From the NCBI GenBank assembly GCA_973895155.1, contig OZ316899.1:8497241-8561240 (forward strand): a stretch of DNA of 64,000 bases, in the 5' to 3' direction. The DNA comes from Marsupella aquatica. Taxonomy: Eukaryota > Plantae > Marchantiophyta. The notes below the pieces were generated by a model. It worked only from the letters and a program-made list of their open reading frames with translations, searched no databases and had not been told where the DNA came from. Positions within the stretch are counted from its first letter, which is position 1. Every line of letters begins with the position of its first letter. Positions 11,507 through 62,256 of this stretch are shown here, in pieces. Both the position numbers and the translations under genes were made by a program.

Positions 11507-11508
11507 TG

Positions 11509-11520
11509 TGGTATCAGAGC
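11509..11520 (+). promoter_or_regulatory. Primer binding site (tRNA-iMet)
   Basis: TGGTATCAGAGC, 2 nt after the LTR end. Confidence 0.93.
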
Positions 11521-11558
11521 GATTGCTAGCATAGACACCGGGCCGGGGTTGTGCTAGG

Positions 11559-14500: not shown

Positions 14501-14998
14501 AACCTGGCAAGTGCGAGTTTGCGATGAACGAGATTCAGTTCCTTGGCCATACCTTTACCCTGGAGGGGATTACGCCTAGTCAAGACCCTAAACATAAGTA
14601 GGAAGCTGGCTCCTAGATATCCTGGGCCCTATCGCATCATACGATGGGCCTACAAGGATAATCCGGTTTTGGGGGTGTTGGAGACACCCAAGGAAATGGG
14701 CGTGGGCAAAAGCTACCATGTTAGTCAACTCAAGAAATTTGTCAAAGATGATAATCCCAACCGGGATCCGGTCTTGCGTCCGGACGCCATGCTGGTGGAG
14801 GACGCGGAGGAGTTTGAAGTGGAGGCAATTCTAGACCACCGTTACAAACGCAAGTTGGGAAGGCAAATCTTAGAGTATTTGGTGAAGTGGACTGGCTATG
14901 ATCAGGCCGAGAGTACTTGGGAACCGAAAGAAAATTTGGGTACTGCCTCAGAGATCCTTGGAAGCTATTGTAAGCAAAGTAGTCTACCGCCGTTGTGA
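11559..14998 (+). pseudogene. Chromovirus gag-pol remnants: gag, protease, RT, integrase GPY/F tail and chromodomain
   Basis: Protease ALVDTGAT near 13350. [42 protein letters not shown]. After FLGH the sequence jumps near 14575 to KLAPRYPGPY and chromodomain EFEVEAILDHR...YLVKWTGY...STWEP. Confidence 0.92.
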
Positions 14999-15434
14999 AC
15001 TGGTGCACGCAATTGTAGCTACCTTTGTGAGTTGTACCCTAGTTTCACTCCTCTCGGCCTCTTAAGGATAAAGTCAGATTGCGTTGGTGCTAGAGGTTGT
15101 TGAGCGGCCGATTTGCTTTTTGTGAGTGGAAGTTGATGGTGCCCGCCTTACATCTGTGGGCGGGTTGGTTCGAACCAAAGGGGAGTACCCCAAGGGGAGG
15201 ACAATGGGTCCAACGAGTTTGGAGTTAGCTTACCCGCTTGGACTGGCATCCTACTTGGATAAGTGGGATAGGTTGGATTTCCTAAGTTTGGAATGCGCAC
15301 ACCAACCTGGTTTGCATTAGCCTTATGGGCAAACCATTTGTTACCTCATAAAGTTTTAAGACCCAAAGTAGTCTAGGCGTGCTGGAACGTTTACTGAGGT
15401 CACGCGGACGTGACCATTTTTAAGGGGGGGCGCA

Positions 15435-16885: not shown

Positions 16886-17815
16886 TCCTGCCACCTCCAT
16901 TTTTGCTCAATGAAATTAGTAATGTAAATGAGGAGTGAGTGGACAGTTGTGTCATGATCCAGCGTATGCTTTTGTTGGGAGGGACGGACGATGAGTGCTC
17001 GAATGCTTTGTGAGGCAAATCTAGCCCGCCTTTCTGCGTTAAGCTCAAAGGATTTTCTACTTTGGTTTGTGAATGTCCAGAAGGGCGAGATAGTCCCTAT
17101 CTCGTAAGCGTGAGGCATCTTGGTCAAGCGCCCTATTGATGATGGCCCTGATCATGGTGTTATTCTGGGGGCTACTTATGAATACCCTCTACTCATGACT
17201 TAGTAAAGGCACGGCACCTGACGTGGTTGTGTATGCAGCTCCCTCTTGTTACGACCGGCGGCAATACCTTAAGTACCCATTATGGCTATCCCAACTGTAT
17301 TAAGATAATAATTGTGCTTTACTAAAATGACAAAAAGATTGGGGTCCGCACAATGTGTTAGTGAGATGTACAGTACTTTATCCTATGAGATTTGTTCTTG
17401 ATTTTTTGGATGAGTCGGTGTCTATCGACCCAATTGGCAATCTGGAGATGCTCGATTGAGCCAATTGCTAGTGCAATTTAGTAGACCTGTGGGAGGTCCT
17501 AAATCTGCACCATTGTCTTTGGCAACATTCAGTAGTTTGATTACTGGATCTGATGATTTGATTGAAGGTAACGCACATGCAGCAGATGTTCCGACAATGG
17601 AGGAGCCATGTAAAGAACACATGATGGGTGTATTACCTATTGATACTATTGTGGCACCAATATAGGGTACTAGAGAGGCCTTGCAACAAAATGCGGCCCA
17701 ATTGATACATGATGCCTGGTGTCATGCTTTCACACCGGAGTCAGGAGCACAACAACCTTTTGTAGATGGATTGGTGACCCTTTCACCATTTGATACCACT
17801 CCTATTGCATGGTAA

Positions 17816-20581: not shown

Positions 20582-21705
20582 AACTGACTAGTTACCATTG
20601 GTGTTCTCATGGAAGGTACATAGATTGCAGGAAGGTGATTGATGGGGCTCACTTCCACCCGGCCTCTTGATCTCCACACTTAAAAAGGTGTATATCAACC
20701 TTGTAGAACTTATGGCTAGTTAGAGTTAGGGGACCTCACTCCCAACTAGGGGGGCGATTGTGGGTTTTGGACATGTGTGGATAGGAGTTTCATTTGTACT
20801 CCATTCTCTTATGTTTGTGATATTGATTGTGACTATGTTTAGATATGTGTGACAAGCAATGTATGTGGTGTAGCGATGTTTAAGCGCACAACAACATACA
20901 CAAAAGATATGTCAAGCCCCTGCCCATTTAGTAGCACTTTACAAGAAAAGCCTAAGGCCATCCAAACTTGAAACACATGGTACCTTTCTTGAATCTGTTG
21001 AGGTCTTCCTGGAGATTCACTTAGTAATGCAGTCCCCTACCGTTGATGACCCATATTTCTGCATAGTAGATAGTAGGACATCCCACACTATCCTGCAAAA
21101 TAGAAAATATTTTAGGGAGATAACCTCTTCCAATAGGAGAGTAACAACTATTATGGGACAACACCAGATTGAGGAAGGACATGGTCCCGCCACAGTAATC
21201 CTCCCAAAAGGCAGAGCTATACATATAAAATCTGCAATATATGGCCCAAAAGCCACGAGGAACCTCCTCAGCTTTTAAGACATACGGGCTAACAACCTGC
21301 ACATAGACACAAATATCATCAACTCCCAAAAGGTGATCACATCATTGCTAAAACCCACACCGAAAATGATATAAGAGAAACCCTATCTGCCTACCCATTG
21401 GGATACTATGCCACAAAAACTTGCTATCATGCAGTATCACATTCTAACTCCATCACAAACTTATGGCATAGGAGACTGGGCCACCCAAGCACCAGTATGT
21501 TCCATAAAATCATTTGAGACACAAAGGGAATACCAAATATAGTGCATCCAAGGTCCTTGAAGGACCCATGCATAGCATCTTCGCAAGGCAAGGTGACCAC
21601 CAAGCCATCTCCATCAACAATAGAAAGAAACATCCCAAAATTCTTGGAGAGGCTTGATGCTGATGTTTGCAACCCCATAGATCCCCCTAGTGGGCCATTC
21701 CAATT

Positions 21706-24700
21706 TGTGACGCCACCGGTACGGCGGTTAATGAGTGATTCGGTCTAACTGCGCTTAGCACGTGCATTAGGAGTGTCTTAGGCCGCTATTATTAGCATAA
21801 CGACAGTATTTAGGTAATCATTATGGGTAGGACATCATTAGGCAATAAGGGGGAATTCAGGTTCGGACTGGCGGCGGGTCGCTATTCGCACACCCGGGTT
21901 ACGAGCGTGGAGGGGCCCCTCCCTCGGGTCCGTATAACGTACTTAAGAAGCGGCCACTGACACGCGCTGACTCAGACCGGCGGAGTGGCCGGTACACCAC
22001 AAGCGTGAGCGGTTCAGCCTATGGGCGTCGAGGAGACGTCGGGGGACCGACAAGCCCTCAAGGTATAAAAGGGGAGCCAACCCTTTGTAGTGCACCAGTC
22101 CATCAGTCCACGCGCCAGCTTCGACCCCAGCTCTCTCGTTCGCTCTAAGTTGCCACTACTATCTCCTCTGAATGTCGCACACGATCCTCTCCAGCTCGGC
22201 CATTCGATTCTGGACGCAGTTCCTATCTACCGGAAGGCACTTGGCCGACTCATTGAAACACGCCAACCCGCGCCGATACGAAATCGAATGCGAGTACGAG
22301 AGAGCCATCCGCCTAGCAGGACGACACCACTACATCCTTAACTTTAACTACCCGTCTCAGAGCGAGCTTTACCGACCAGCATAAGTATCTGGGTACTTCT
22401 TCAACGGAGACAAATATATCGGTTTCTGGGAAGCATTGCTTCGGCTTCCAGACGAGGTCTTCAATATCCCGGGTACGATCGACTTGCAACGACATCACTT
22501 CGACCACATCCCTGCTCAGGTTCGGGCTATCATCAACAGCGAGTCCAACACTACCCATTCGACAAGGTCGTCTACACTTGCTTTGGAGAACTTCTACCAG
22601 CATCTACAGAGCTTCATGGGAACTCGGCCATCAACCAACATGACCAACTCAGTCGAACCCATACCCGTACCTATACCCGTACCCATGCAACCTCAGGCTC
22701 AGCTTCAGCTTTAGCCTCAGCCGCAGCCTAGCCAAACCCCACCACCGATCGCCCAGCCAGCACAAGTACGCTCCGTCATCAACGCCGTGGATCTTAGCGA
22801 TGACGACGAGGCTACCCCACCCTTGACCAGGCGGCCCAGAGGAACAAGCGCTCAGGGGGCCGACACTATATCGTCCCCACCCCCTGCTCTGACCCCAGGA
22901 GCGGCCCCGACAGACAACATGGTGACCATGGTCGCCCCGGGCCCGTTACTAACGGCAGTGGCACTACCCAGGCCCGATCGGGAGGATGGGGAAGTGTCAC
23001 CTTCCCCGAGCCAGTCACGGGGGAAGAAGAGGAAGGAATCCACCACTACATCCGGGTTACCGTTGGCCACGGTAGCCGTAGCCAAGGTGACGATGCACCG
23101 CATGGGGGAAAATGCTCACAAAAACATCCTCCATCCCAAGCATGCGGTGTACCTGAAGACTCAGGGATTCGAGCACCTCGCCTCCCTCCCCTGGAACACT
23201 TGCAGGTACTATGGGGAGGACATGACGGAGTTAATCAGGAATTATGATGACGCGCGTCAACATACTCGGCTACGGGGAAGGAGTATGTCCCTCACGGAAG
23301 AACGGCTCAGGATGATCTTCGGGTTACCCGAAGATGACCATCGAGTCGAATCACGGGCTCCCGGGGGCAAGGGAGCCAAGTACCAATCTTCAAGTTTTCC
23401 CTCAGAGGGAGCAGTGGACAACGGGTTCGTGATGAAGACCTGCCTCATCCCCGAGATAGCTGAGCGACTGGAGTTCCAGAGGTACGCCCTCCACATGATG
23501 GAACCCCGGGGGGAGATCTCCGCCGCCCAAGTTATCCAGGTCGAGAACTATCGACCTAGGAAGTGGGCGTCGTACTTCGCTAAGAAATTCCATGAAGAGA
23601 TGGAGCGGCGAAGGAAGACGCTGTACATTGGCGGGAAGGCGTATTTCGCTAGCCACATCGAGATCATTCTTGAGTGGTACGCCCGGTTTGATCGACGAAC
23701 CCTTCCCCGTGTCAACGTTACAAAGCTGGTCCCAACTAGGTGGGTTTTCCCGGCCTTGGAGAGACGGCCCCAACCCGAGGCCCGAAGTCCAGCGGACACG
23801 CCAGCTTCACCCACCCCACCTCCACAAGTAGCTATAGTCGTAACCGAGGAGGTACCGCATGGGTTGGTTGTCGCAACCATTGATGCGACCCAACAAGCCG
23901 AGCTAAGTACAGAAGTTGGTACGGCGGAGGTCTTACCCGAGCCCGGGTCTCCCAAAGACCCACCGGTGGCTATTCCGGAGAACAAGACATTGCTGCAGGA
24001 GGACACTCCAGCCCCTTCCAACGTTACGTCCCCAGGGCTGGACGTCACTGCCCCGGCCCCCGCGCGTGTTGACGTCTGCCTGTGCCCAACTCCGGACAGG
24101 CACAACCTGGACCACCCGGAACTCTTCGTACCGGGTACATTTCTGAACGGGCTTCTGGGAGATTTCTCTCATCAAATTTCCCGGGATACCGGGGAGTTCA
24201 TGGCCCGGAAGGTAGCCTGTTTCTTCAATCAGGAATTGGTTGCCGCAGTAAAGGTAGGTCGGGCCCAATCAGAGGCCCTTCAGAGGATAGAGCGGTACCG
24301 GGTGGAGTCCATGTACCTAAAGAATGAAGTTGCGGCTCAAGAGGCTGAGCTTCTGCAACTACGACCCAAGGTTGCAGCCGCCGATGAGTTGTTAGCAAAG
24401 GCGCACGCTCTTACCGCCCTAGCCGAACAGGCCAAAGCTAGGAACGAGGCCGAGATTACACGACTCCGGAACCAGATTGACAGTTTGAAGAATCAAACCG
24501 TCACCTGGCAGAAAGACCTGGAGGAGACCGAGGAACGGGCCCAGCGAGACACGGCGGAGATAGCCATGCTGCAGGCCGAGGTGGCGCGGCTCCAAACCAA
24601 GGCCGAGAAGCAGGACCAGCTAGCGGGTAAACTGACGAGCGACGCCCAGCAGCTGGAGGAGGCATGTCAGGAGGTAGCAGGGAGACGGACGCGGCGAGGT

Positions 24701-25717
24701 GAGAGAACGAATCTCTGCTGGACCAGGTCCAGCTCCTCAAGGCGGACAATGACAGGCTTCGAAGGCAGCAGGATGGCCGCTCCCATTCGGGCGGCTCTGG
24801 CAAGCGTGCCAGGCATTAGCAGCGGAGTAGGAATAGATTAGGATTAGGACTGGCTTAGTCAGGCTCTTGGGACAGGCACCTGCCTTAGGTACAGCAGCGC
24901 TGCCATGCTGTCCAGCCTGCGTAGATTAGGATCTTCTAATAAGACACAACCGTTTTCCGGCCTGACTGTCAGCTTAGTTAGGACCTTAGTCAGCAAATCT
25001 TCGGCGAGAGGACACCCCGTCCCTCGTCCCTTAGTATTTAGTGCACCCCTCGGTAGAGGCGGGGGGGGGGGTTTAGTTGCAGAGTTGGACGTCCGCGGTA
25101 TGTGCGGGGAGTCCCGACCTCTGGGAATGAAAGAGTACCAAGGGGAGGGGGTAGGACTAAGCTCGCCGGGCGAGTGCGGAGCCGAGCTCCGTTGTAGTGT
25201 GCACCCTCGGCCTTGAACCTGTTCATTCCGGGGCTGTCGGGTCAACTAAGTGTACGCATATGTTCCCTTTGTAGAAAAATCCTTTCCCATCATTTTCCTT
25301 TGTGTAAATTGAGATTGTATGCATGTGCGCGTGTATGTGTGTGGGTTTCTCGTATATGGGTGGCAGCGCCAGGCCGAACGCACTACCCGAGACATGCACA
25401 GGGTGCAGCCTACGGGTAAGTGGTTGCCAGCACGGGTTGAGGACCAATATCATCGAATCTGGATCGAAGGCGGACAGCACGAAGGCTTAGAAGCCCTTAA
25501 GCCGGGGTCGATCCTGCTATCGACTAAGGTACGTTCCGGTGGCGGAACACAAACCATACCTAGGAGGTGTCCGTATTTAGTAGTATGCGCACTTAGCGCT
25601 AGTTTACGAGAATAAGGTGCATTACGTGCTTCCCTTCCTGCCCGAACCCTCAAATTTACGAGGGATGTGCCCGTCTAAGCTGAAGTCTGAGTTAAGGCCG
25701 CAGCCGACGACGTGACA
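21706..25717 (+). repeat. 5' LTR (4012 bp)
   Basis: Near-identical to 29686-33591 from position 21820 on; TATA box TATAAAA near 22064; same ends as the solo LTR. Confidence 0.93.
22172..24819 (+). pseudogene. LTR-encoded ~880-aa protein, 5' LTR copy
   Basis: ORFs at 22172, 22436 and 22787 share one frame, broken by stops at 22382 and 22712 and a 1-bp deletion near 24680; all three sites are intact in the 3' LTR copy. Confidence 0.85.
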
Positions 25718-25729
25718 TAGCCTTTGTTT

Positions 25730-25747
25730 TGGCGCTAGATGGAGGGG
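25730..25747 (+). promoter_or_regulatory. Primer binding site (tRNA-Asn-like)
   Basis: TGGCGCTAGATGGAGGGG, one mismatch to the TGGCGCTAGAAGGAGGG PBS type I recall for plant Tat elements. Confidence 0.75.
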
Positions 25748-25840
25748 GCACTCTACATATCGTAGAGGGGAGACATGTGCGTATTCACCTAGGCAGGATA
25801 CATCAGGACGTAGTACTAACCATCACATTTATATGAGTAA

Positions 25841-27463
25841 ATGCCCGTCACTCATTCTCAAGCAGCTTACTTGAGGAGATTGACCAGCGAACGAGAAAGT
25901 GCAACCACGACAAGTTCCGATTCTTCGGGCTCGGAGGACTCGCAATCGCCCCGACGTATGAACATACCCCCGGGACCTTCGGGGTCCGGTTCGACCGGTC
26001 CTGCTGCGGTTCCTCCGCCACCACCACCACCACCGCCACCTCCACCACCACCTATGGCAGCCGCTTCATTGATGGCCCGCGCTGCTCAAGCTCCTCCACA
26101 AATATCGCAACGATCGCAATTTCATTATCGACCTTTCAAGGGGCGTCATGGGGACGATCCGGATGAATGGTTGGATGAGTTTGAAGCCACTGCTAAAGCT
26201 AATGGGGAAGACGCCATTAAGCTAACCGTCCTCCCGGGGGTGATGCGGGGAGAAGCTCGTCCATGGTACAACTCGTTGCCACCCGGGACTACATGGGCAC
26301 AATTCCAAGCTCCATTGCTGCAGGAGTTTCGTGCCATTGGATCAGAACAACGTTCTCTATTAAAGATTGGCCAGCTTCGCATGGGAAAGAAGGAGTCCCT
26401 GCGGAAGTTCATTCAGAAGTTTCAGAAACTTGCGGCCAAGATCTGGCCCAGGCCGGGAGACGCGCTCCAGCTTACATGCTTCCTTCATGGTTTGCCCACG
26501 AATATGCAATTATGGGTACGCCAGAATAATCCAATTTCAATGCAGGCGGCCATAGCGTGCGCTGAAACTTACCGGGAGTCCACCTATAACTCCTGGCGGA
26601 GCCAGCGAGCACGCCGCAAGAAGGGTAAGTACGAGACCTTCAGTGACAGTGACTCCGAATCGGACGACGAGAGGAAGAAGAAATGCAAGAAGAAGAAGAA
26701 ACATCATTCGACCTCGTCCAGCTCTGAGACGGAATCCAGTTCGGATTCAGCTTCAAGCACCGGATCCTCTACCTCCAGTTCATCAGGAAGTGACTCGGAG
26801 GGCGGAAGCCGGAGCAAAAAGAAGAAGAGACGAGTGAAGAAGGAGGGGAAGATCAAACCCCGGGCGCGAAGAACAATACCAGATCCAAAGGCTACCGAAG
26901 CAGACAAGCTGAACGAAATCACGGATCGCCTCAAAGCACTGTCAGTACATCTTGCGGAAAATCCGGTGGAGAAGAAGAAGCCATCTGAGATTCGAGCCCA
27001 TGCGTGGTGTTCAAAGTGCTTCCAATCCGGCCATGTGGTGCAGGAATGCCCAAGGTGGAAGAACCGAGTTCACCAAGTAGAGCTGGATGATGTTGACAAC
27101 CCGGGTCCCGAATCGGAGTCCACGGAGTATTTCTTTGAGGACCCTCTTGATTCCGTGTACCAGATTTCAACGATAGGTCCGCGTAATTTAGCGGGTAGAA
27201 CTGCATACCCCTACCCAAACAATGGCCGGAGTTTCCAGGTTATCAGTAACCCGAGCATCCCTCCTAAGCCAGGGATTTGGCGATCCCCGGTTTGTTATAA
27301 CTGTGAAAAGCCAGGACACTTTGCGAGGGAATGCACCGAACCAAGACGTCAGGGAGATGGCCGAGGCACACCACTATGTCAAGTCTGCAAAATGGAGGCT
27401 CATTCCACGGCCAACTGTCCGTTGGTAATCGCTGCTCGAACGAGCACAGCTAGACCGGCCTAG
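25841..27463 (+). CDS. gag (retrotransposon gag domain, Ser/Lys-rich tract, three CCHC-type knuckles)
   Basis: DPDEWLDEFE, GEARPWY, QLRMGKKESLRKFIQKF, FLHGLP; CSKCFQSGHVVQEC, CYNCEKPGHFAREC, CQVCKMEAHSTANC. Confidence 0.92.
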   Translation: MPVTHSQAAYLRRLTSERESATTTSSDSSGSEDSQSPRRMNIPPGPSGSGSTGPAAVPPPPPPPPPPPPPPMAAASLMARAAQAPPQISQRSQFHYRPFKGRHGDDPDEWLDEFEATAKANGEDAIKLTVLPGVMRGEARPWYNSLPPGTTWAQFQAPLLQEFRAIGSEQRSLLKIGQLRMGKKESLRKFIQKFQKLAAKIWPRPGDALQLTCFLHGLPTNMQLWVRQNNPISMQAAIACAETYRESTYNSWRSQRARRKKGKYETFSDSDSESDDERKKKCKKKKKHHSTSSSSETESSSDSASSTGSSTSSSSGSDSEGGSRSKKKKRRVKKEGKIKPRARRTIPDPKATEADKLNEITDRLKALSVHLAENPVEKKKPSEIRAHAWCSKCFQSGHVVQECPRWKNRVHQVELDDVDNPGPESESTEYFFEDPLDSVYQISTIGPRNLAGRTAYPYPNNGRSFQVISNPSIPPKPGIWRSPVCYNCEKPGHFARECTEPRRQGDGRGTPLCQVCKMEAHSTANCPLVIAARTSTARPA

Positions 27464-27496
27464 GCTGGACCGGCCACAAGCGATGCAGTCGTCCAA

Positions 27497-29685
27497 ATGA
27501 TTGTTGTAGAATGGCAAGATGACAACACCGAGTGGGTGAATCTGGTGGACGTGGCGGAACACCCTAATCCATCTGACGAGGCTGAGTGCTATCGTGTGTC
27601 AACAAGAGCTGAACGGAAGGAAGAGAAGCAGGAGGAGAAACGCAGGAAAAAGCAAGATACTACTCCGGTGCAGCCAGCGATAGATATACCCCCGAAGAAG
27701 GACGATGACTACCGACGGGACGACCCGAAGCTATTTTTCCCTCGCATCGAAGAATTGGTAAAGAAATAGCTGGAGGCTTATGAAGCTCAGGAATACCAGA
27801 AGGCAATCGATAAGGACATCAAAGCAGCCGAGACAGCCCGGCAACAGGAGCAAGAAAAGCAAGATAAACAAGAGGAAGCCAAGCAGCAGCCGAAGGAAGA
27901 AACGAAGGAGGACTATGATATTAAGGAGGACGTGAAGAGTTGCCCGGTTACAGCAACGGTGGGGCAACTGCTGCAGAACAACCCATAGTACAGACGGCAA
28001 CTAAGGGAGTTGCTCATGGGTCGCCGAAGGAGGAGACTACCCCGAGTTGGGATCGCGGACTGCAACATGATATGCGAGGACCTTGGAGCGCCGGACATCT
28101 CGATCAAAATTAATAATTGTACCATCAAGATGGTTCTTGTAGACGGAGGAGCGGGAGTCAACATCATGACTGAAGAAACGTATCAACCCACAACCCAAGC
28201 TATCAGATTAGCAAACGGGGCAAGGGTCCTCCCATTAGGCACGCTCACACGAGTGCTCACTCTGGTGGGAGGGGTGGAGTTCTATCTCAACTTCCTAGTT
28301 ATGAGGCCGGTTCATCCCTCCTCTTACCCGGTTCTTCTGGGCAAGCCGTGGCTGTACGGTGGCCGCGTAGTCACGGATTGGGGAAAGAAGGAGCTACGGT
28401 TCGGGGAACCCACCGTACGGGTATCATGGGCAATGGACGATTATCAGGGAGAAACCCCACAAGGACCCGAGGAATATGATTCGGAGACCTCGGAGGAAGA
28501 GGAACTCAATATGATTGAACTCATCTCGTCCCTGTCCGAGGAAGATGTCTTCGGAGTTGAAGCAACCCGCGAAACACATCTCCTAAATTACCCGAGGGCT
28601 GCCATTGAGTCCACCCCAAGCACATCTACTGCCGGGGATGAGGAAACGCACAAACAACTCGTCGAGACGGAGGACAAGGCTCCAAGTAAGCAGGGAGCCG
28701 AGACTGCTTCTACCGTTGCAGAGCCTCGTGACCACGAACCAGTCCAACAACCGCCCGAGGCCAAAAACTCAAGACCGAGACATAAGAAACGAGTCTCATG
28801 GGATCCGTCCATTCCGCAATTGGAGGAAGTAACTCCAATCCCGAGACCAATCCCGGTTCCACCCATGTACGGAGGAGTTCGGTTAGCTGAGCTTGATGCG
28901 AGCCTGGACCCGAGCCTGCAAAACCAGGTTGAAGTCATCAGGAAGGAGCACTACCGGAAGTACACCATTGGGATGGACAAATCTTTTAACCTGGGCCACG
29001 CTCTGACAGGGGAGGCTGAAAAATCCATCCAAGCTTTGCTCAAGGAATGTGAAGATGTGTTTGCATGGAGTCATCATGATTTAACAGGCGTCTCCCCCAA
29101 GTTGGGAGAACACACGATCGATCTGAACCTAGGAACCCATGCGGTACGGCAGCGACAACGTCGCATGAACCCGAGGTACTCCATCTTAGTGAAGGAGGAA
29201 ATTGATCGTCTCCTCGCCGCCGATATCATCTACCCGGTAATGGCCAGCGACTGGGTCTCTCCCATTGTCATTGTACCAAAGAAGGGAGGTACGGATGGAA
29301 AACCTAAGATTCGTATCTGTCAGGACTACCGTAAGCTTAACGACGCAACCCGAAAAGACCATTTATCATTACCATTCACGGATATGGTTCTAGATATGGT
29401 CGCCCGAAATGAAATCTATACATTTCTTGACGGGTATTCAGGTTATAACCAAATCTGGATTCGCCTCGCGGATCAGCTCAAAACAACTTTCACTATGGAG
29501 TGGGGGACTTTCGCATTTCGGAGGATGCCTTTCGGTCTGTGTAACGCCCCGGCCATGTTTCAACGCCTTATGATGAATATCTTCCAGGATTTCCTACGGG
29601 AATTTCTGGAGATATTTATCGATGACTTTGCCATCTTCGGAACCGTTGCCATGCACCCCGAACACCTAAGACGAACGTTGCAACG
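27497..29685 (+). pseudogene. pol: aspartic protease and truncated RT
   Basis: VLVDGGAGVNIM, VLLGKPWL; [47 protein letters not shown]; cut at 29685. Confidence 0.93.
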
Positions 29686-32600
29686 ATTATGGGTAGGACA
29701 TCATTAGGCAATAAGGGGGAATTCAGGTTCGGACTGGCGGCGGGTCGCTATTCGCACACCCGGGTTACGAGCGTGGAGGGGCCCCTCCCTCGGGTCCGTA
29801 TAACGTACTTAAGAAGCGGCCACTGACACGCGCTGACTCAGACCGGCGGAGTGGCCGGTACACCACAAGCGTGAGCGGTTCAGCCTATGGGCGTCAAGGA
29901 GACGTCGGGGGACCGACAAGCCCTCAAGGTATAAAAGGGGAGCCAACCCTTTGTAGTGCACCAGTCCATCAGTCCACGCGCCAGCTTCGACCCCAGCTCT
30001 CTCGTTCGCTCTAAGTTGCCACTACTATCTCCTCTGAATGTCGCACACGATCCTCTCCAGCTCGGCCATTCAATTCTGGACGCAGTTCCTATCTACCGGA
30101 AGGCACTTGGCCGACTCATTGAAACATCCCAACCCGCGCCGATACGAAATCGAACGCGAGTACGAGAGAGCCATCCGCCTAGCAGGACGACACCACTACA
30201 TCCTTAACTTTGACTACCCGTCTCAGAGCGAGCTTTACCGACCAGCAGAAGTATCTGGGTACTTCTTCAACGGAGACAAATATATCGGTTTCTGGGAAGC
30301 ATTGCTTCGGCTTCCGGACGAGGTCTTCAATATCCCGGGTACGATCGACTTGCAACGACATCACTTCGACCACATCCCTGCTCAGGTTCGGGCTATCATC
30401 AACAGCGAGTCCAGCACTACCCGTTCGACAAGGTCGTCTGCACTCGCTTCGAAGAACTTCTACCAGCACCTATAGAGCTTCATGGGAACTCGGCCATCAA
30501 CCAACATGACCAACTCAGTCGAACCCGTACCCGTACCCGTACCCGTACCCGTACCCATGCAACCTCAGGCTCAGCTTCAGCTTCAGCCTCAGCCACAGCC
30601 TAGCCAAACCCCACCACTGATCGCCCAGCCAGCACAAGTACGCTCCGTCATCAACGCCGTGGATCTTAGCGATGACGACGAGGCTACCCCACCCTTGACC
30701 AGGCGGCCCAGAGGAACAAGCGCTCAGGGGGCCGACACTATATCGTCCCCACCCCCTGCTCTGACCCCAGGAGCGGCCCCGGCAGACAACATGGTGACCA
30801 TGGTCGCCCCGGGCCCGTTACTAACGGCAGTGGCACTACCCAGGCCCGATCGGGAGGATGGGGAAGTGTCACCTTCCCCGAGCCAGTCACGGGGGAAGAA
30901 GAGGAAGGAATCCACCACTGCATCCGGGTTACCGTTGGCCACGGTAGCCGTAGCCAAGGTGACGATGCACCGCATGGGGGAAAACGTTCACAAAAACATC
31001 CTCCATCCCAAGCATGCGATGTACCTGAAGACTCAGGGATTCGAGCACCTCGCCTCCCTCCCCTAGAACACTTGCAGGTACTACGGGGAGGACATGACGG
31101 AGTTCGTCAGGAATTATGACGACGCGCGTCAACATACTCGGCTGCGGGGAAGGAGTATGTCCCTCACGGAAGAACGGCTCAAGATGATCTTCGGGTTACC
31201 CGAAGGTGACCATCGAGTCGAATCACGGGCTCCCGGGGGCAAGGGAGCCAAGTACCAATCTTCAAGTTTTCCCTCAGAGGGAGCAGTGGACAACGGGTTC
31301 GTGATGAAGACCTGCCTCATCCCCGAGATAGCTGAGCGACTGGAGTTCCAGAGGTACGCGCTCCACATGATGGAACCCCGGGGGGAGATCTCCGCCGCCC
31401 AAGTTATCCAGGTCGAGAAATATCGACCTAGGAAGTGGGCGTCGTACTTCGCTAAGAAATTCCATGAAGAGATGGAGCGGCGAAGGAAGACGTTGTACAT
31501 TGGCGGGAAGGCGTATTTTGCTAGCCACATCGAGATCATTCTTGAGTGGTACGCCCGGTTTGATCGACGAACCCTTCCCCGTGTCAACGTTACAAAGCTG
31601 GTCCCAGCTAGGTGGGTTTTCCCGGCCTTGGAGAGACGGCCCCAACCCGAGGCCCAAAGTCCAGCGGACACGCCAGCTTCACCCACCCCACCTCCACAAG
31701 TAGCTGTAGTCGTAACCGAGGAGGTACCGGATGGGTCGGTTGTCGCAACCGTTGATGCGACCCAACAAGCCGAGCTAAGTACAGAAGTTGGTACGGCGGA
31801 GGTCTTACCCGAGCCCGGGTCTCCCAAAGACCCACCGGTGGCTATTCCGGAGAACCGGACATTGCTACAGGAGGACACTCCAACCCCTTCCAATGTTACG
31901 TCCCCGGGGCTGGACGTCACTGCCCCGGCCCCCGCGCGTGTTGACGTCTGCCCGTGCCCAACTCCGGACAGGCACAACCTGGACCACCCGGAACTCTTCG
32001 TACCGGGTACATTTCTGAACGGGCTTCTGGGAGATTTCTCTCATCAAATTGCCCGGGATACCGGGGAGTTCATGGCCCGGAAGGTAGCCTGTTTCTTCAA
32101 TCAGGAGTTGGTTGCCGCAGTAAAGGCAGGTCGGGCCCAGTCAGAGGCCCTTCAGAGGATAGAGCGGTACCGGGTGGAGTCCGTGTACCTAAAGAACAAA
32201 GTTGTGGCTCAAGAGGCTGAGCTTCTGCAACTACGACCCAAGGTTGCAGCCGCCGATGAGTTGTTAGCAAAGGCGCACGCTCTTACCGCCCTAGCCGAAC
32301 AGGCCAAAGCTGGGAACAAGGCCGAGATTACACGACTCCGGAACCAGATTGACAGTTTGAAGAATCAAACCGTCACCTGGCAGAAAGACCTGGAGGAGAC
32401 CGAGGAACGGGCCCAGCGGGACACGGCGGAGATAGCCACGCTGCAGGCCGAGGTGGCGCGGCTCCAAACCAAGGCCGAGAAGCAGGACCAGCTGGCGGGT
32501 AAACTGACGAGCGACGCCCAGCAGCTGGAGGAGGCATGTCAGGAGGCAGCAGAGGAGACGGACGCGGCGAGGCGAGAGAACTAATCTCTGCTGGACCAGG

Positions 32601-33591
32601 TCCAGCTCCTCAAGGCGGACAATGACAGGCTTTGAAGGCAGCGGGATGGCCGCTCCCATTCGGGCGGCTTTGGCAAGCGTGCCAGGCATTAGCAGCGGAG
32701 TAGGAATAGATTAGGATTAGGACTGGCTTAGTCAGGCTCTTGGGACAGGCACCTGCCTTAGGTACAGCAGCGCGGCCATGCTGTCCAGCCTGCGTAGATT
32801 AGGATCTTCTAATAAGACACAACCGTTTTCCGGCCTGACTGTCAGCTTAGTTAGGACCTTAGTTAGCAAATCTTCGGCGAGAGGACACCCCGTCCCTCGT
32901 CCCTTAGTATTTAGTGCACCCCTCGGTAGAGGCGGGGGGGGGGGTTTTAGTTGCAGAGTTGGACGTCCGCAGTATGTGCGGGGAGTCCCGACCTCTGGGA
33001 ATGAAAGAGTACCAAGGGGAGGGGGTAGGACTAAGCTCGCCGGGCGAGTGCGGAGCCGAGCTCCGTTGTAGTGTGCACCCTCGGCCTTGAACCTGTTCAT
33101 TCCGGGGCTGTCGGGTCAACTAAGTGTACGCATATGTTCCCTTTGTAGTAAAATCCTTTCCCATCATTTTCCTTTGTGTAAATTGAGATTGTATGCATGT
33201 GCGCGTGTATGTGTGTGGGTTTCTCGTATATGGGTGGCAGCGCCAGGCCGAACGCACTACCCGAGACGTGCACAGGGTGCAGCCTACGGGTAAGTGGTTG
33301 CGAGCACGGGTTGAGGACCTGTATCATCGAATCCGGATTGAAGGCGGACAGCACGAAGGCTTAGAAGCCCTTAAGCCGGGGTTGATCCTGCTATCGACTA
33401 AGGTACATTCCGGCGGCGGAACACAAACCATACCTAGGAGGTGTCCGTATTTAGCAGTATGCGCACTTAGCGCTAGTTTACGAGAATAAGGTGCATTACG
33501 TGCTTCCCTTCCTGCCCGAACCCTCAGATTTACGAGGGATGTGCCCGTCTAAGCTGAAGTCTGAGTTAAGGCCGCAGCCGACGACGTGACA
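29686..33591 (+). repeat. 3' LTR lacking its first ~114 bp
   Basis: ATTATGGGTAGGACATC at 29686 matches 21820; ends GTGACA followed by the TSD. Confidence 0.93.
30038..32692 (+). pseudogene. LTR-encoded protein, 3' LTR copy (885 codons, no frameshift)
   Basis: Single frame with stops at 30473, 31064, 32582 and 32633, each a sense codon in the 5' LTR copy. Confidence 0.85.
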
Positions 33592-35195
33592 CAATTCTTC
33601 ATAGGAATCATAGACGCATCCTCAAAGTGGTCACAGGTATCACTATTATCAACTCACAAGGATACTGACACATATTTTAAAACTGAAAGCATTTCCCAAA
33701 GCATCCAATCAAGATCCTTAGAGTTGACAACGCTTGTGAATTTACATCCAAGACATTCAACAACTTTTGCATGACAACCCGATCGCCCATGTGCATTTTC
33801 CATATGGAATTGCAGAGTCCTTCATCAAGAGGCTCATCAATTATAGGTCTTTCAATATAATCTTCAATAGATCCAAATAGCGATCGACGCCAACAACACA
33901 CTCTCTCCAATCTTGAACTAAAACTCCTAGAGACCCTTCAACTTATCAATATATCCTCACACCCTGATAGTTCTGCTTCAACACCTCAAAGATTTCCACC
34001 ACATGGTTAAATGTTGGCGCAACTCTAGTCTCTGCCACAATTGCAACGGTAGGAGTAACGATGGATGCTGCTGAAGTGCTACTAGTGGATGGTGTGTCAC
34101 TTTGGTTGGTGCTACTAGAAGAAGCAACAGTTGTGGCAATGGGTTGGGGAGCTGCACTAGTGCCATAGGTGACGGACATATAATTAGGCGACCAATGCTA
34201 TCTCCATGCCTCAATCTCAACCAAATGAGCCTTCCAAAACTCATGGTAGTCATCCATGGATGCCCCTCCAAATGTTGAAATAATCCTTTTCATGCCATAA
34301 AAGGGGTAAACAATGAGGCTTACGTACGTAATGTTTGTATATTGCACCATGTATCAAACTCTTGGATGAAATCATCCAGATCAATCGTGCCAACTGCACC
34401 GGAGTATCTCTTTGCGCCCTTTGTAGCCCCATACATCTCTTCCATGTCCACAACAAAGGTACAATCACTTGATGACGAGGAGAACTGGTCATAGAGTCCT
34501 CATCAGAATCATTGTTTGAGGCTATAATGCTGACTACTGCTACCAATGTCATTGGCCAAAATTTCACCCTAGTTTGAGTGGAACCGGTCCGTTGTCCATT
34601 GGGTAGCCCCGCAGCACCAAAAAAATCCGTGATGACCAATCTACTCAAACCATAGCCATCAATCTAATGTAGGTGCTAATCCTAACAGGGCAATCTATCC
34701 TTGACAACACCACAATCACTCACCATGGTGTGTTGGGCATCATTTCAACATTGCCATGAGAGAAATACACAGCACAACTAGAGTGTCCGGTTGCAAACTC
34801 AAATTACTCATATGAAATCAAGAGCCCACACCAAACTAACATGATGCATATGTAGGAAGCATGTGTGGAGAGGATCCAATAATAAGAATGGACATAGCAT
34901 AACTCTCCACTCAAAAGTAATTGCAATTTCATACAATGATGTTCATAAGGTTCAATGAAGAGCCTTCATAATACGCTTCACAATGCTCTAATGTTGTAGA
35001 TGAGAATTCATGCAAAATTGATTTTAGCTATGCATCTAGATGGACACAAGAGCATCAAAAACCCAAAGACACCTTCTAATTTGGCCCAGATAGGCCTCTA
35101 AACAAACTGGGCAGTGCATAAAGCCCCCTAATGCTTCAATCTAGACAACGAGTTGTGAAAGCTAGTGTGTACACAAGATGTGATAAAAACCTATT

Positions 35196-36237: not shown

Positions 36238-39200
36238 TGTTGAGCATAGACGACATTTGTAACGGCAAGTCCATGAACCATCCAACGCACAAGAGTCGAC
36301 ACAAAGAGATATGTGGTTCACCTCCACATGAGGTTACGTCCATGGGAACACACAATAGCTTTACTGCACTCTAAGCCGACCGCCCATACCAAGCATCCAC
36401 AGCACAAGCTCTCCCTATCTCTCAACTAACTCCGTAACAATGAGCCTAAGTTCCACCAGGGTCTAGCATCAGCCCTGGCTATATCCACAACAGCACTACC
36501 GCTAACATTAGCTAACTCCTAACCCGAGTTAGACTAACTATGGTTAGCTCATGAGTCACAAGACTAGAGCAATATCTAACAAACTCCCTCTTGACTCTTG
36601 TCTTGGGGACTAGACTAAATGCTACCATATGGAATCCTCAGCGGGAAGTTCTAGACAATCACCAAACCAGGTATCCCCCTAAAAACCACAAGGGTTAACT
36701 AAGGGTTAACTAGAACTAAGCCATAACCAAACAGGAATGAATAATCCATATACAAATAGTCACACATTGCTAAATAACTCTACTTGCACTACAACTGCAA
36801 AACCTGCAAAGTAGTACGGTGTCTTGAGAAACTCTCCAAAGGAATCACTTTGGTAAAGGCATCAGCAGGATTGAGCTTTCCATCAATCTTGACTAGCTCA
36901 AAAGTTTTATCAGACATTGTTTGCCTGATAAAATGGTACCTGATATCAATGTGCTTCACCCTGCTATCCATTACCTGGTTAGCAGCCAAGTGAAGAGCAC
37001 TCTAACTATCACAGTTTAAAGTCATTTTGTCATGTTCTAAACCCATCTTCGCGATCAACTTGTCCAACCAAATTGCTTCATTTGCTGCTTTTGTTGCTGC
37101 AACATACTCTGCTTTTGTAGTAGACTGAGATATACACTTCTGCAAGGTAGATTTTCAACTGATACATCCTCCTCCAAGAGTAAATACAAACCCAGTTGTA
37201 GACTTCCTTGTATCCAGACAGCCTCCATAGTCAGAATCTACATAGCCAACTAACGTTCTATCTTATCTGTTATCAAATAGTAATCCATAGTCCTGTGTTC
37301 CCTTCAGATACTTGAGAATCCACTTCACAGCTTCCCAATGTACCTTCCCTGGATTTGACATGAATCTGCTAACCTTGCCCATCGCTAGGGCCAAGTCAGG
37401 CCTAGTACAAGTCATCAAATATATCAGACTGTCTACTGCCTTCTCATAAGGAATCTTAGCCATTAGACCTTTCTCCACAGCATCCGTAGGAGAGAAAGCC
37501 GATGATAACTTGAAATGTGAAGCTAAAGGAATACTCACTGGCTTACAATTTTCCATGTTGAATTGTGCAAGTACTTTCCTTGCATACTGGCCTTGACTCA
37601 AACACAACTGTCCAGTATCAGAGTTTCTAAAAATCTCCATCCCTAAGATCCTCTTGGCCTTACCAAGATCCTTCATCTTGAATTTAGCACTCAATTTTGC
37701 CTTGAGACTGTGAACCTCAGATTGATCTTTAGTCACAATCAGCATGTCATCCACATAGATCACCAAAATGATGAAACCAAACACATCATTCTTGACTGAT
37801 TTTGTATACACACAATGATCATATACCATCCTTGTAAAACCTTGAGCAAGCATGAAATCATCAAACCGCTTGTTCCACTGTCTGGGAGACTGCTTCAATC
37901 CATACAAGGACTTGAGCAATCTGCAAACTAAGTTCTCTTGGCCCTTCTTCATAAAGCCTAGTGGCTGTCTCATGAAGATCAACTCTTCCAAGTTGCCATA
38001 GAGAAAAGCACTAACAACATCCATCTGATCCATCACCAGACCAAAAAACACAACAAACTGACACAGGATCCAAATTGTGGAATACTTAGCCACCGATGAA
38101 AAGACCTCATTGTAGTCCACTCCTTTCTCCTGAGTGAACCCCTTGGCAATAAGCCTTGCCTTGTAGATCTTGTCTCCACCCTCTGAAGGACTGTCCTTTA
38201 ACTTGTAAATCCACTTGCTGTCCATCACTTGCTGACCTCTTGGAAGCTCCACCAACTTCCTCTGCATTGCTGCATTCCACTCATGCTTCTGCTATGAAGC
38301 ACAAGCCTCATTGTACAAAGAAGGCTCTCCTTCTTCCAAGATCAAAGCCATATCATCTTCATCAGGTGCAATGTCCATATCATCTAGCTTAGATGAGTCT
38401 GTCCATTGACCATACCTGGTAGGAGCTCTAGTAGAACGACTGAAAGTTCTTCTAGTCGATGATTCAGGTTGATTTGTTGCTGCTGCTGGCTGAATTTGAG
38501 GTACCCCAACAACAATCTGCTCCTCTTGTTCCATCATAGGAACCAGCTCCAAGCTCGGAGCTTCTCCATCTCTCCTGTCATGAACAACATCATGACTAAT
38601 CTCCCCCTCAACCCGGTCCGGGATGAGAGATTTCCCCTTGTCAATATGGGAGTCCTGAGAACTCTCCCCCTCCTTTGATGATCTGGATTCATTAAAGGAC
38701 ACATCTCTACTGACAATTAGTGTACAGGTTACTGGATCTCACAACCTATAATCCTTCACACCTTTCTGATAGCCAAGGAAAATGCACTTCTTCGACTTGG
38801 ACTCTAGCTTGGATTGAAGTTGGGAAGGTGTAAGCACATTAGCATCACATCCAAAAATCCTCAGATGTGAGTAATCTGCTAGACGCCCGTACCTCATTTC
38901 AAATGGCGTCTTGAATCCAATAGAACTGGATGGAGAAAATTTTACCAAATAAGCTGCAGTGTTGACAGCTTCAGCCCAAAACTCATGTGGTAAGCATGAT
39001 TGACTCAACATACTCCTCGAGCGGTCCAATAGTGTTCGGTTGAGTCTCTCAGAAACACCATTCTGCTGAGGAGTATAACTTGTTGTGAGATGGCGGGTAA
39101 TCCCCTACTCCTTACAATATGTTCCAAATTCTCCGGAACTGTATTCACCGCCATTATTCGATCAAAGATATCTCACCTTATTACCAATCTGATTCTTTAC

Positions 39201-52387: not shown

Positions 52388-52405
52388 TTTAGTCAAAGCA
52401 AAGCA

Positions 52406-58321: not shown

Positions 58322-61300
58322 TGTCACGTCGTCAGCCTAGGCCTTAACCCGGGCTTCGGCTTAGACAGGCACATCCTTCGTAAATATGAGGGTTTGGGAA
58401 GCACGAAATGCACCTAACTCATGTAAACTAGCGCTAAGTGTGTCTACTGTTATTTATGGACACCTCCTAGGTATGGTTTGTGTTCTGCCGCCGGAACGTA
58501 CCTTAGTCGATAGCAAGATCGACCCCGGCTTAAGGGCTTCTAAGCCTTTGTGTTGTCTGCCTTTGATCCGGATTTGATGATACAGTTACTCAACCCATGC
58601 TTGCAACCACTTACCCGCAAGCTGCACCCCGTGCACGGTTTGGGTAGTGCGTTCGGCCAAGCGTTGGCATCCATACATGAGATTCACACATGCACACGCA
58701 CAAGCATACAATCTCGATTTACACGAAGGAAATAATGGGAAATGATTTTACTACATAGGGGACATACACGTACACTTAGTTGACCCAAAAGCTCTTGAAT
58801 GAATAGGTCCAAGGCCGAGGGTGTACACTACAACGGAGCCTGGCTCCGCACTCGCCCAACGAGCTTAGTCTTACCCCCTCCCCTTGATACTCTTTCACTC
58901 ATAGAGGTTGGGACTCCCCGCACATACCGCGGATGTCCGACTCTGAGACTAAAACCCCCTGCCTCTACCAAGGGGTGCACTAAATACTAAGGGTTGAGGA
59001 TTGGAGTGGCCTCGCGCTCGTAGATTCGCTAACTAAGATCCTAACTAAGCTGGCTGTCAGGCTAGAAAATGGCTTGTCTTATTAGAAGATCCTAATCTAC
59101 GCAGGTTGGACAGTATGGCAGGGCTGCTTTAACTAGGATAGGCGCTTGTCCCTATAGCCCAATTTAGCTACTCCTAACTCTATTTTAATCCTACTCCGTT
59201 GCTAATGCCTGGCACACTTGCCAGAGCCGCCCAAGTGGGAGCGGCTATCCCGCTACCTCCTGAGCCTGTCAGTATCTTGCTTGAGTAGTTGGACTTGGTC
59301 CAGTAGAGATTCGTTCTCACGCTTCGCCGCGTCCGTCTCTTCCGTGGCCTCCTGACATGCCTCCTCCAATTGTTGGACGTCACTCGTCAACTTATCCACC
59401 AATTGGGCCTGCTTTGTGGCTTCTCCTTGAAGCCCGCCACCTCTGTCTTCAGGGTGTCAATCTTGGTTGCGTCCCGGTGAGACCGAGAGTTAGCTTCCTC
59501 TAGATCCTTCTGCCAAATGACGGCTTGTCCCTTCAAACCATCGATCTTGGTCCAAAGCCCTGTGATCTTGGCGTCCTTTCCGAGTCTGGCCTGTTCTGCA
59601 AAGGCTGCCCGGGCTCTGGCTTTGACAACCTGATCCTCCATGGCCGTTACCTGAGGTTGCAGTTGCTGGAGTTCAATCTCCACGGCTACCACTTTGTCCT
59701 TCAGGTAGGCAGACTCAACCCGGTATCGCTCTATTCTTTGCGCTGTCTCCACCTGTGCATGTCTTGCCTTTACGGCCGCAACCAACTCCTGGTTGAAGAA
59801 GTAGGCCACCTTCCGTGCCATGTATTCCCCTGTATCCTGTGAGATCTGTTGCGAGAAATCTCCCAACAACCCATTTAGAGATATGCCCGGCGCAAAGAGT
59901 TCTGGATGGTCCAGACTATGTCCATCTGGATTCGGGCACGGGTAGACCCCAGCCCGCGAGGGAGTAGGAGTGGAAACATCCAGCCCTTGAGGTAAGTTGG
60001 TCGAAGGGGCTGGTTCCACCGGGCGGTTCTCCTGCACGGCCATGGGGGATGGCGGGATCTCCTCGGCCACCGTAGTGTCGGGTTTGGGTCCGGCCTCAGC
60101 CGGCCCGGCTTTGATTGCGTTGACCCGGTTGATCGCTTCCAAGGTTGCGATAACTGCATCCATGGGTACGCTTGGTGGGGAGGTAGTGGCTGGTTGCGGG
60201 GCCAGAGAAGCAGGTCCTGCGGCTGTCAGGCTTTGGGCTGTGGTTGCCTCTCTTGAGCTGGGAATACCCACTTTGACGGAGTCAATTCCGTCTCGTTGCA
60301 ATAGGGAAGGCTTCGGCGGTCAAAACGGGCGTATCATTCAATGATAATCTTGATGTGGCTCGCGAAGTACGCCTTTCCGCCAAGGTACAAGGTCTTCCTT
60401 CTCCGCTCCATCTCTTTGTGGAACTTCTTAACGAAGAAGGACGCCCACTTACTAGGCCAAAAGTTCTCTACTTGTATGACCTGGGCGGCGGATAGTTTGC
60501 CCCGTGGTTCCATCATATGGAGGGCATACCGCTGGAACTCCAGGCATTCAACTACCTCCAATGAGGCACGTCCTCATCAAGAATCCGTTGTCCACTGCTC
60601 CCTCGGTCGGGAAGCTAGAAGACTGGTATTTAGCTCCCTTGCCCCGAGGAGCCCGCGACTCTACCCGGTTTATCCCCTCGGATAGGCCAAAAATCATCTT
60701 CAAACGTGCCTCATTGAGACACATCACTCTCCCGTGCACTCGGGTTTGTTGGCAGGCCTCGTCCAAGTTCTGAATGAACTCCGTCATATCCTGCCCGTAG
60801 TACCTGCTTCCATTCCAAGGGAGAGAGGCAAGGTGCTCAAACCCTTGGGTCTTCAGATAGCATGCATGCTTGGGGTGGAGGATGTTCTTGTGAACATTCT
60901 CCCCCATGCGATGCATGGTCAGCTTGGCCACTGCAACCGTGGCCAGAGGCAACCCTGATATAGCTGCGGGTTCCTTTCTCTTTCTACCGGCCCCGAGACT
61001 GATTCCCGGGGTGACTAGAAGAGGGGGACATCTCTCCTTCCTCCCGGTCAGGCGGTGGTAGCGCTACTATCGTGAGTATTGGTGTCGGGGCCGCTAGAGT
61101 CACCGTGTTATCCCCTCGGGCTTGTTGGAGTGGCGTCGGGTTGCTTGGCGCCTCTTGAGTTGTACCCGGCAGCTGTCAATTCAGAGGAGGGTGAGATTCC
61201 TCATCTTTGGAGCTAATATTCACCGCATTCACCATGGATCGTACTTGGAGAGGTGGTGCGACCGGTGGTGGGGATCGGCTTGGTTGAGGCCGAGGCGGTG

Positions 61301-62256
61301 TTGGTGCGGACACGGATTGGTGGGCGCTAGTTGCAGCTGGGGGAGGCATCATTAGGTTCAAGTAGTTCCTGGGGAAGTCGAGTGATGTTAGGATAGGAGT
61401 CTCACTTGTTTGAGCAGGGCCAAACTGACAGTCAATGGAGGCTTGAACCCGGGCGGGGATATGGTCGTAATGGTGTGGCTGCAAGTCTATTGTGCCCGGG
61501 AGATGGTAAACCGTGTCTGGAAGCAAAAGAAGTGCTTCCCAAAATCCGACGTACTTCTCATCGACAAAGAAGTATTTGCTGATTTTGTCGACTCGGCAAA
61601 GCTCACTCTGAAAGGGAGGGCAAAGTCATGGTTATAGTGATTTCGGCCAGCTAAACGAATGGCTCTCTCGTAAGCTCATTCGGTCTTGTATTGGCGCGGG
61701 TTTACTTTGGCTAAGGACTTGGCTAAGTGACTTCCTACGGATAGGAATTGCAGCCAAAATTGAAGGGCCAAATTGGACAATATTGTGACAGACATCCAGG
61801 AGTGACGGTGGGCGACTAAGGAGGGACGAAGTGGCTGAGGTCAAAGCTGGCACGCGGAATGGAGTGTGAGTGTAATGCGAGAGAATGGCCCTCCTTTTAT
61901 ACTCTGAGGGCTCATCGTCTGACCGGCCCCTCCTCTCTTCCCATAGGCCAAGCTTTTCACACTCCCAATGTACTGGCCACTCGCAGGTCCAGTTCAGAGC
62001 GTGTCAGCAGCCACCTTCAAGAATTTGTTATATGGACCCGAAGTGTCCCCTTACACGCTCATAACCCGAGAGTACGAATGGCGCTCCGCCGCCATCCCGA
62101 ACATAAATGCCCCTTATTAACTAATGATTCCCTAGTCATAAGTACTACCTACTTAGTGTTGTTATGCTAATAACTACGGCCTATGGTGCCCCTAACGAGC
62201 GTGCTAAGCACGGCTAAGCCGAATCAATCATTAACCGCCGTGCTGGTGGCGTCACA
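58322..62256 (-). mobile_element. Solo LTR (3935 bp) of a diverged relative of the Tat-like family
   Basis: Ends are reverse complements of TGTGACGCCACC and GACGACGTGACA; perfect 5-bp TSD AAAAT (58317-58321, 62257-62261); colinear with 21706-25717. Confidence 0.93.
59202..61795 (-). pseudogene. LTR-encoded protein homologue in the solo LTR
   Basis: Fragments MHRMGENVHKNILHPKH, LEFQRYALHMMEPRG, LDHPELF.PG..LNGLLGDFS, FFNQELVAAVK match the 22172-24819 protein. Confidence 0.85.

Follow-up and report, generated by a model that had tools for sequence, protein, structure and literature searches.

A protein gene under purifying selection inside the long terminal repeats of a liverwort Ty3/gypsy retrotransposon, with a core predicted to fold like the anti-silencing factor VANC21

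The 64,000-nucleotide stretch of Marsupella aquatica contig OZ316899.1 analyzed here (hereafter the window) contains, at 21706-33591, a retrotransposon whose 4-kb long terminal repeats (LTRs) each carry a protein gene (hereafter the LTR gene; Table 1). Self-BLAST pairs 21820-25717 with 29686-33591 as direct repeats of 97.6% identity over 3,906 columns, and the complete left LTR (21706-25717; 4,012 bp) has the termini TGTGACG...CGTGACA, i.e., of the TG..CA type, with CAATT present on each side of the element as a target-site duplication (TSD). A further repeat copy at 62256-58322 (3,935 bp; ~75% identical to the element LTRs) shares the termini of the left LTR and is flanked on both sides by ATTTT, a low-complexity TSD of its own. 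A first-pass annotation of this sequence had proposed true LTRs on the basis of TG..CA ends, TSD, primer-binding site (PBS) and a solo LTR with its own TSD, and repeat termini, CAATT, the PBS-like site and ATTTT all agree: the 4-kb repeats are true LTRs, and 62256-58322 is a solo LTR. Because these LTRs and the TSD occur together with a PBS-like site and the order gag, protease (PR), reverse transcriptase (RT), the element is a Ty3/gypsy LTR retrotransposon.

The LTR gene starts at an ATG at 22172 (5' copy) or 30038 (3' copy), 108 bp downstream of the start of a TATA match, and its 884 codons in the 3' copy make up 66% of the LTR, in line with the earlier description of one frame filling about two thirds of each repeat from ~100 bp past a TATA box. 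Also as described earlier, the lesions differ between copies and are private to each—stops at codons 71 and 181 and a 1-bp deletion near 24680 in the 5' copy, stops at codons 146, 343, 849, and 866 in the 3' copy. Read from the 3' copy, the protein consists of an N-terminal domain (residues 1-125), a Pro-rich linker with the word KKRK, a core (293-530), a second Pro-rich linker, a conserved block (641-700), a predicted coiled coil and a C-terminal KRAR. The core is basic (38 K+R vs 26 D+E), and both KKRK and KRAR are nuclear-localization-like basic words.

The gene was under purifying selection in the transposing lineages. Between the 3' LTR and the solo LTR, the ratio of nonsynonymous to synonymous change (dN/dS; counting method, transition weight 3, with 0.20-0.34 over the weights tried) is 0.30 (bootstrap 0.24-0.36; 825 of 884 codons compared), and the differences fall 194/158/389 on the three codon positions. 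By part, dN/dS is lowest in block 641-700 (0.12) and the core (0.15; 0.09-0.22), followed by the coiled coil (0.31), the N-terminal domain (0.38) and the linkers (0.46 and 0.57), while shifted-frame controls give 1.4 and 1.9. The twin LTRs of the element itself differ at a dN/dS of 0.79 (23/18/22 by codon position; 873 codons), as expected after insertion. Because the position-biased differences and the ratio of 0.30 separate the 3' LTR from the solo LTR, this selection acted while the gene was already within the LTR of both subfamilies. An accessory gene in the LTRs, as first proposed, is thus real and selected; and in the window's family, represented here without whole intact members, neither of the two outcomes named beforehand as contrary to that proposal (short LTRs with an internal frame; dN/dS near 1) was found. 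These ratios also bear on whether the frame could be a passenger, i.e., a fragment of a DNA transposon or gene that had inserted into an ancestral LTR and was then carried along without selection. While all three window copies are broken, and VANC—the anti-silencing gene considered below—itself comes from Mutator-like DNA transposons, values of 0.12-0.38 in the folded parts largely refute such an origin, open homologues share the layout, and sequence links lead to gypsy 3' open reading frames (ORFs); we regard a passenger frame as very improbable.

The core can be modeled with confidence from an alignment. With 40 rows, its AlphaFold model has a predicted local distance difference test score (pLDDT) of 86.5 and a predicted template modeling score (pTM) of 0.82, vs a pLDDT of only 31 from the single sequence. 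The top Foldseek match is 9LNJ, the VANC21-DNA complex (probability 0.85, TM-score 0.51), and among 48,161 chains compared with VIA-align the best is 9LNK, also VANC21, a VANDAL protein (Z 8.7, root-mean-square deviation 4.2, 215 aligned residues; next best Z 2.5). The Z is middling, yet nearly the whole domain is covered and no rival structure appears. We predict, then, that the core folds like this DNA-bound anti-silencing factor, i.e., has a fold of the plant mobile domain (PMD) type. Its ESM Atlas clusters are DUF1985 (0.90) and PMD (0.89; 14% of members), VANC proteins are reported to carry DUF1985 (PMC5735166), and VANC is reported to match the host protein MAIN structurally (PMC13547354). 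Other searches added little: the family profile found coiled coils only among PDB sequences, BFVD gave no clear structural match, and the N-terminal domain had no match in Pfam or the ESM Atlas.

Profile links to gypsy ORFs are transitive. The window protein has no Pfam match above the curated cut-off for PMD, DUF1985 or Transposase_32, and none directly to PF10536. In a metagenome scan (11 of 64 parts covered; 80 of 494 matches kept), the sole significant match of the core profile among 80 loci was the post-pol ORF of locus L003 (E 4.7e-12). That ORF matches Transposase_32 weakly and below cut-off (2.5e-4), and six of nine other post-pol ORFs match Transposase_32, five of them above cut-off (L061 at 1.8e-33). 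In hhalign comparisons the core reached probabilities of 96% with L003, 78% with L061 and 48% with L012, and at most 23% with the other six. Shared predicted fold and transitive profiles would place the core with the PMD/DUF1985/Transposase_32 group, so that the PMD/Transposase_32 resemblance noticed at first pass stands at these two levels and fails as a direct Pfam match. Position and profile links to the sense 3' ORFs of Athila-like elements also recall the envelope-like label that such ORFs frequently bear, but an envelope-like protein is scarcely credible here: no hydrophobic or membrane segment occurs in four proteins inspected (P0001, P0159, P0171, P0162; maximal 19-residue hydropathy 0.9-1.3), and the fold match is a nuclear DNA-binding protein.

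With the core as query, phmmer found 36 homologous proteins, and eight of the 17 looked up are from Calypogeia fissa. One of the 36 (P0159) is an open 906-aa protein with 33% identity over 564 columns spanning the N-terminal domain, basic motif and core; with a coiled-coil-like region and the word KRAR at its end, it has the same layout as the LTR gene. The window RT is 68% identical to Calypogeia proteins and, in a tree of 53 hand-chosen rows without named lineage references, falls into a 25-row clade (support 99/87) that includes Calypogeia, Riccia, and Marchantia rows and excludes the seed-plant Athila-like ones. Among 79 loci of the metagenome scan, L002 is closest (61% RT identity) and is the only tree-placed metagenome locus inside this clade. 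We describe the element as Athila-like Ty3/gypsy. Its TSD is 5 bp long, as in Athila (PMC6317226). The part of pol that could hold a chromodomain or additional RNase H is deleted in the window; the Pfam lists of the close relatives P0010 and P0012 (the latter 68% identical) name neither. In Athila the PBS is mostly of the tRNA-Asp (72%), Asn or Ala type; the window's PBS-like TGGCGCTAG is unlike the TGGCGCCG type of L002, L004, and L012, and lies 12 nt from the left LTR end vs 4-5 nt in those loci. Membership of Phygy or Selgy was rejected, since these have 4-bp TSDs and are short elements without extra ORFs. Word-indexed searches with the ORF found no match among proteins of 486-1547 aa, and none in a search restricted to proteins of 1587-4530 aa, which speaks weakly against a gag-pol fusion. 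In viral_contigs the core had a single 15-residue match and the RT had none, and the order of Calypogeia accessions revealed no ORF pair flanking pol.

The window copy is a dead element. A deletion ends its RT at 29685 and fuses it to the 3' LTR 114 bp inside, with loss of RNase H (RH), integrase (INT), the polypurine tract (PPT) and the TG end of the 3' LTR; RT continues past this junction in contigs of runs X2 and X4. The in-frame gag-pol stops at 27461 and 27986 are other bases in contigs of four runs, and for this reason the family probably has a single gag-pol frame, as in P0010 and P0012. The left boundary is family-wide, because in contigs of four public runs (two studies) the repeat starts at 21706 next to differing flanks; depth, in the thousands on the repeat, falls there to a few hundred or to zero, and the 10-15 loose ends per run disagree with one another, as expected of many insertion sites. 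The family PPT was unreadable from the contigs' loose ends (agreement 0.39-0.51). The family is very abundant, the depth over the element exceeding that of the flanks by two to three orders of magnitude (a depth, not a copy number). The ratio of observed to expected CpG is 0.84-1.03 in the element vs 0.31-0.41 in the flanks, i.e., the element is not CpG-depleted, which does not decide function.

How might a gene come to lie inside an LTR? Extra ORFs of the Tat/Ogre/Athila type were said at the outset to lie normally between the LTRs, and so they do, both as described in the literature (see below) and in the seed-plant-type relatives L004 (LTR ~1.4 kb) and L012 (1.6 kb), where the LTR begins behind the internal ORF and a purine tract. 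In L003, a PPT-like GAGGAC-plus-purine tract follows pol and occurs again after the ORF. In L002, a purine tract ~90 bp past the pol stop is followed by TGTGGGAGC, an exact inverted repeat (9 bp) of the 5' LTR end, with an ORF of at least 285 codons ~510 bp further in; this ORF seems to lie inside its LTR, as judged from one truncated contig. The start of that putative LTR (6149-6661) has nine CCGGA words (0 of 300 shuffles), and the window has TTAG at the same position. Because the ORF is internal in L004 and L012, two tracts exist in L003, and a post-pol tract plus LTR end in L002, these sequences suggest that gene and promoter entered the LTR when priming switched to the purine tract upstream. 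Specifically, the tract used for plus-strand priming would have changed from one that follows the gene to one that follows pol directly, and what is normally an internal 3' ORF in Athila-like elements would thereby have become LTR sequence. A 6,190-bp terminal repeat of L004, considered as a second giant LTR with a 1,226-aa ORF, was rejected as an over-circularized contig (real LTR ~4888-6320, ORF internal). L004/L005 is an apparently intact Athila-like element with a 2,009-aa gag-pol and a 1,226-aa internal 3' ORF with repeats.

The LTR resembles a complete gene in its order of TATA box, C/T-rich leader, ATG, stop, conserved AATAAG and TGTA-rich tract. Its most conserved part is the 3' 900 bp (84.6% identity to the solo LTR vs 70.9% for the 5' 466 bp), where a TTAG cluster, AATAAG at 24938, the TGTA-rich tract (25193-25316) and donor-like sites at 25414 and 25527 are found; this part lacks strong RNA structure (lowest 150-nt z -1.9 in the 5' LTR, and -2.9 once in the solo LTR). 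The solo LTR retains both donor consensus sites, which follow the ORF; none occurs between TATA and ATG. TTAG clusters stand on both sides of the gene, and although their excess is real (1 of 300 shuffles), they are weak candidates for binding sites. The lone conserved TATA would favor a gene that precedes gag on the genomic RNA, and rice Retrosat2 offers a precedent, with a predicted early TATA and a 2-kb R in a 3.2-kb LTR (PMC3485330); the downstream donor sites point the other way. An alternative topology, independent of function, would put the gene in U3 with its own promoter, like sag of mouse mammary tumor virus. A second, TATA-less promoter within the conserved 3' 900 bp would then start the genomic RNA, gag would be translated once an intron with the PBS had been spliced out, and the ORF would not lie ahead of gag. 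The conservation contrast, the placement of the donor sites, and the fact that relatives' internal ORFs precede the LTR all favor this arrangement, against which stand the single TATA match, the poly(A)-like signals (AATAAG, TGTA tract) that fill the 3' part, and Retrosat2; we put it a little below even odds. A perfect TACTAAC branch-point-like word lies within 25814-25843, just before the gag ATG, with the next AG in a GAG context, and may mark an intron that removes the PBS.

We hypothesize, with a rough probability of 0.55, that this selected LTR gene with its VANC21-like predicted core encodes a nuclear protein which, by binding the DNA of its own element, sustains the element's transcription against host silencing. 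On this reading, a PMD/VANC-fold accessory gene came to lie in the LTR, and its product likely serves as a self-targeted anti-silencer or activator. The gene would be transcribed from the TATA box at 22064, and its message would be polyadenylated at a signal in the LTR's own 3' part, such that both LTRs and every solo LTR would form self-contained expression cassettes. Short family-specific words in the non-coding LTR would be the targets of the protein, which would act in trans against methylation or heterochromatin. VANC recognizes short motifs clustered in non-coding regions and strips off methylation in a family-specific manner (PMC5735166), and by this analogy the protein likely binds its own LTR. 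The putative anti-silencing role suggested at first pass thus gains support from the sole clear structural match of the predicted core being such a factor.

Several observations weigh against this hypothesis. The Foldseek E for the VANC21 match is only 0.11, at 10% identity, and a Z of 8.7 barely exceeds 7-8, the range that VIA-align calls common. There is no Pfam PMD-type match for the window protein, nor in the 30 of 36 homologues scanned. The link between the L002 ORF and the core is weak (23% probability; 1 of 500 shuffles scored higher), a 4-mer excess similar to that of TTAG occurs in an unrelated chromovirus LTR of the window and in one flank, and the proposed layout leaves gag translation without explanation. 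Transitions between the two LTRs affect 7.0% of CG, 5.6% of CHG and 0.6% of CHH sites, a pattern suggesting that the window copy was methylated after insertion, which is not decisive on function. Finally, a shared fold shows no function, and this same fold serves the host silencing factors MAIN and MAIL1 (PMC5418596).

There are two functional alternatives. The PMD-type fold could serve the element elsewhere in its life cycle, by guiding or tethering integration, by bringing the cDNA complex into the nucleus, or by transactivation without effect on silencing marks. A targeting factor could be useful in elements that, like P0010 and P0012, list no chromodomain or additional RNase H; the basic core, KKRK/KRAR and coiled coil would suit any nuclear scaffold, and reviews propose such roles for extra ORFs (PMC7264820, PMC11963269). 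As the lone structural match is a sequence-specific, DNA-bound anti-silencing factor, we consider this possible but clearly less probable than anti-silencing. On the contrary, the protein could restrain its own element, either by silencing in the manner of MAIN/MAIL1 or by controlling copy number: the PMD proteins of hosts have a role in silencing (PMC5418596), and a repressor would increase in dose as solo LTRs accumulate. The great abundance of the family (as depth, not copy number) and the anti-silencing activity of the transposon-borne relatives of known function make self-restraint unlikely.

Table 1. Features of the LTR-gene element and of the solo LTR, in window coordinates.
Feature	Position	Strand	Basis
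Left TSD, CAATT	21701..21705	+	Flank comparison
5' LTR, 4,012 bp, TG...CA	21706..25717	+	Self-BLAST, termini, family-wide left boundary in four runs
TTAG cluster at LTR start, 6 words; weak candidate binding sites	21755..21841	+	Word counts
TATA box TATAAAAG, then C/T-rich leader	22064..22071	+	Only TATA[AT]A match in LTR; kept in solo LTR
LTR gene, 5' copy, two stops and 1-bp deletion	22172..24819	+	Frame reading
PMD/VANC-like core (predicted), 5' copy, stop-free (modeled span 23048-23776)	23081..23707	+	Homologues, predicted fold
Conserved non-coding 3' part of LTR, 84.6% identical to solo LTR	24820..25717	+	LTR comparison
PBS-like sequence TGGCGCTAG	25730..25741	+	12 nt from LTR end
gag (Retrotrans_gag, CCHC knuckle)	25841..27463	+	Pfam
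pol remnant: protease region and N-terminal RT (RVT_1), cut by deletion	27989..29685	+	Pfam; run contigs
3' LTR without first 114 bp	29686..33591	+	Self-BLAST
LTR gene, 3' copy, 884 codons, four in-frame stops	30038..32692	+	Frame reading
Right TSD, CAATT	33592..33596	+	Flank comparison
Solo LTR, sister subfamily, decayed gene copy, TSD ATTTT	58322..62256	-	Self-BLAST, flanks

Elsewhere in the window, a decayed chromovirus-type gypsy element occupies 9634-16886 (+), with LTRs of ~1.45 kb at 87% identity, a 375-bp insertion in the 5' LTR (10970-11345) and RH/INT apparently deleted; it has what we take to be a Met-type PBS near 11510 and a chromodomain-like frame near 14800-14998. A Ty1/copia element lies at 36240-43105 (-; 342-bp LTRs at 94%, RVT_2 and gag_pre-integrase matches). 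Long frames at 44225-49629 (-), one with DUF7869 (E 5.8e-35), adjoin a block of tandem and palindromic repeats (49647-50369) and are possibly a decayed DNA transposon. A frame at 118-846 (+) matches the SET domain (E 3.2e-6), and 51494-56404 (+) has several frames of 220-297 codons without Pfam matches and a tandem repeat (53618-53973).

Genes encoded in LTRs are known from retroviruses, in sag of mouse mammary tumor virus and part of nef of human immunodeficiency virus. These share the location of the window gene but are unrelated proteins of animal retroviruses with much shorter frames. In plants, LTRs of 3-6 kb are known (PMC3485330, PMC6431247), and exact-phrase searches of open-licence text found neither a protein gene within a plant retrotransposon LTR nor a VANC-like retrotransposon protein described. 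The nearest systems are of two kinds. VANC proteins are, like the window protein, transposon-encoded accessory proteins with a coiled coil (PMC13547354); however, they belong to VANDAL Mutator-like DNA transposons rather than a bryophyte LTR retrotransposon, and the window protein shares ~10% identity with VANC21 and has an extra N-terminal domain. Judged by its host element it stands outside the VANC family, although its predicted build is that of a VANC protein. The accessory sense ORFs of Ogre/Tat/Athila-type Ty3/gypsy elements (PMD PF10536 in Ogre, Transposase_28 in Retand, Transposase_32 PF20167 in Athila-like 3' ORFs) share with the window gene a PMD-type domain, a coiled coil and transitive profile links, but are reported from the internal region, up- or downstream of gag-pol (PMC7264820, PMC6317226, PMC11963269, PMC6431247), whereas the window gene is duplicated within the LTRs. 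MAIN and MAIL1 share the fold group of the window core through the published VANC-MAIN match and the Atlas PMD cluster; they are host genes acting in silencing, and the window protein lacks a direct PF10536 sequence match.

We tentatively propose, at odds clearly short of even, that the element carries a VANC-type anti-silencer of a retrotransposon in its LTR, that insertion doubles the gene while the solo LTRs which host recombination leaves behind stay working anti-silencing cassettes, and that the “env-like” Transposase_32 ORFs of Athila are the same kind of protein. Sequence-specific anti-silencing has been established for VANDAL DNA transposons. The role of plant gypsy extra ORFs is described as unknown (PMC7264820, PMC11963269), the origin of the PMD domain between gypsy elements and host genes has been called fully open (PMC5418596), and VANC is suggested to derive from MAIN-like host genes (PMC13547354); a selected gene of predicted VANC fold in an abundant LTR family makes both the role of extra ORFs and the origin of the PMD testable. 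If the proposal is true, PMD/VANC counter-defense in gypsy elements predates the split of liverworts and seed plants, and the LTR location would turn solo-LTR formation, normally the deletion of an element, into a way of keeping its counter-defense gene.

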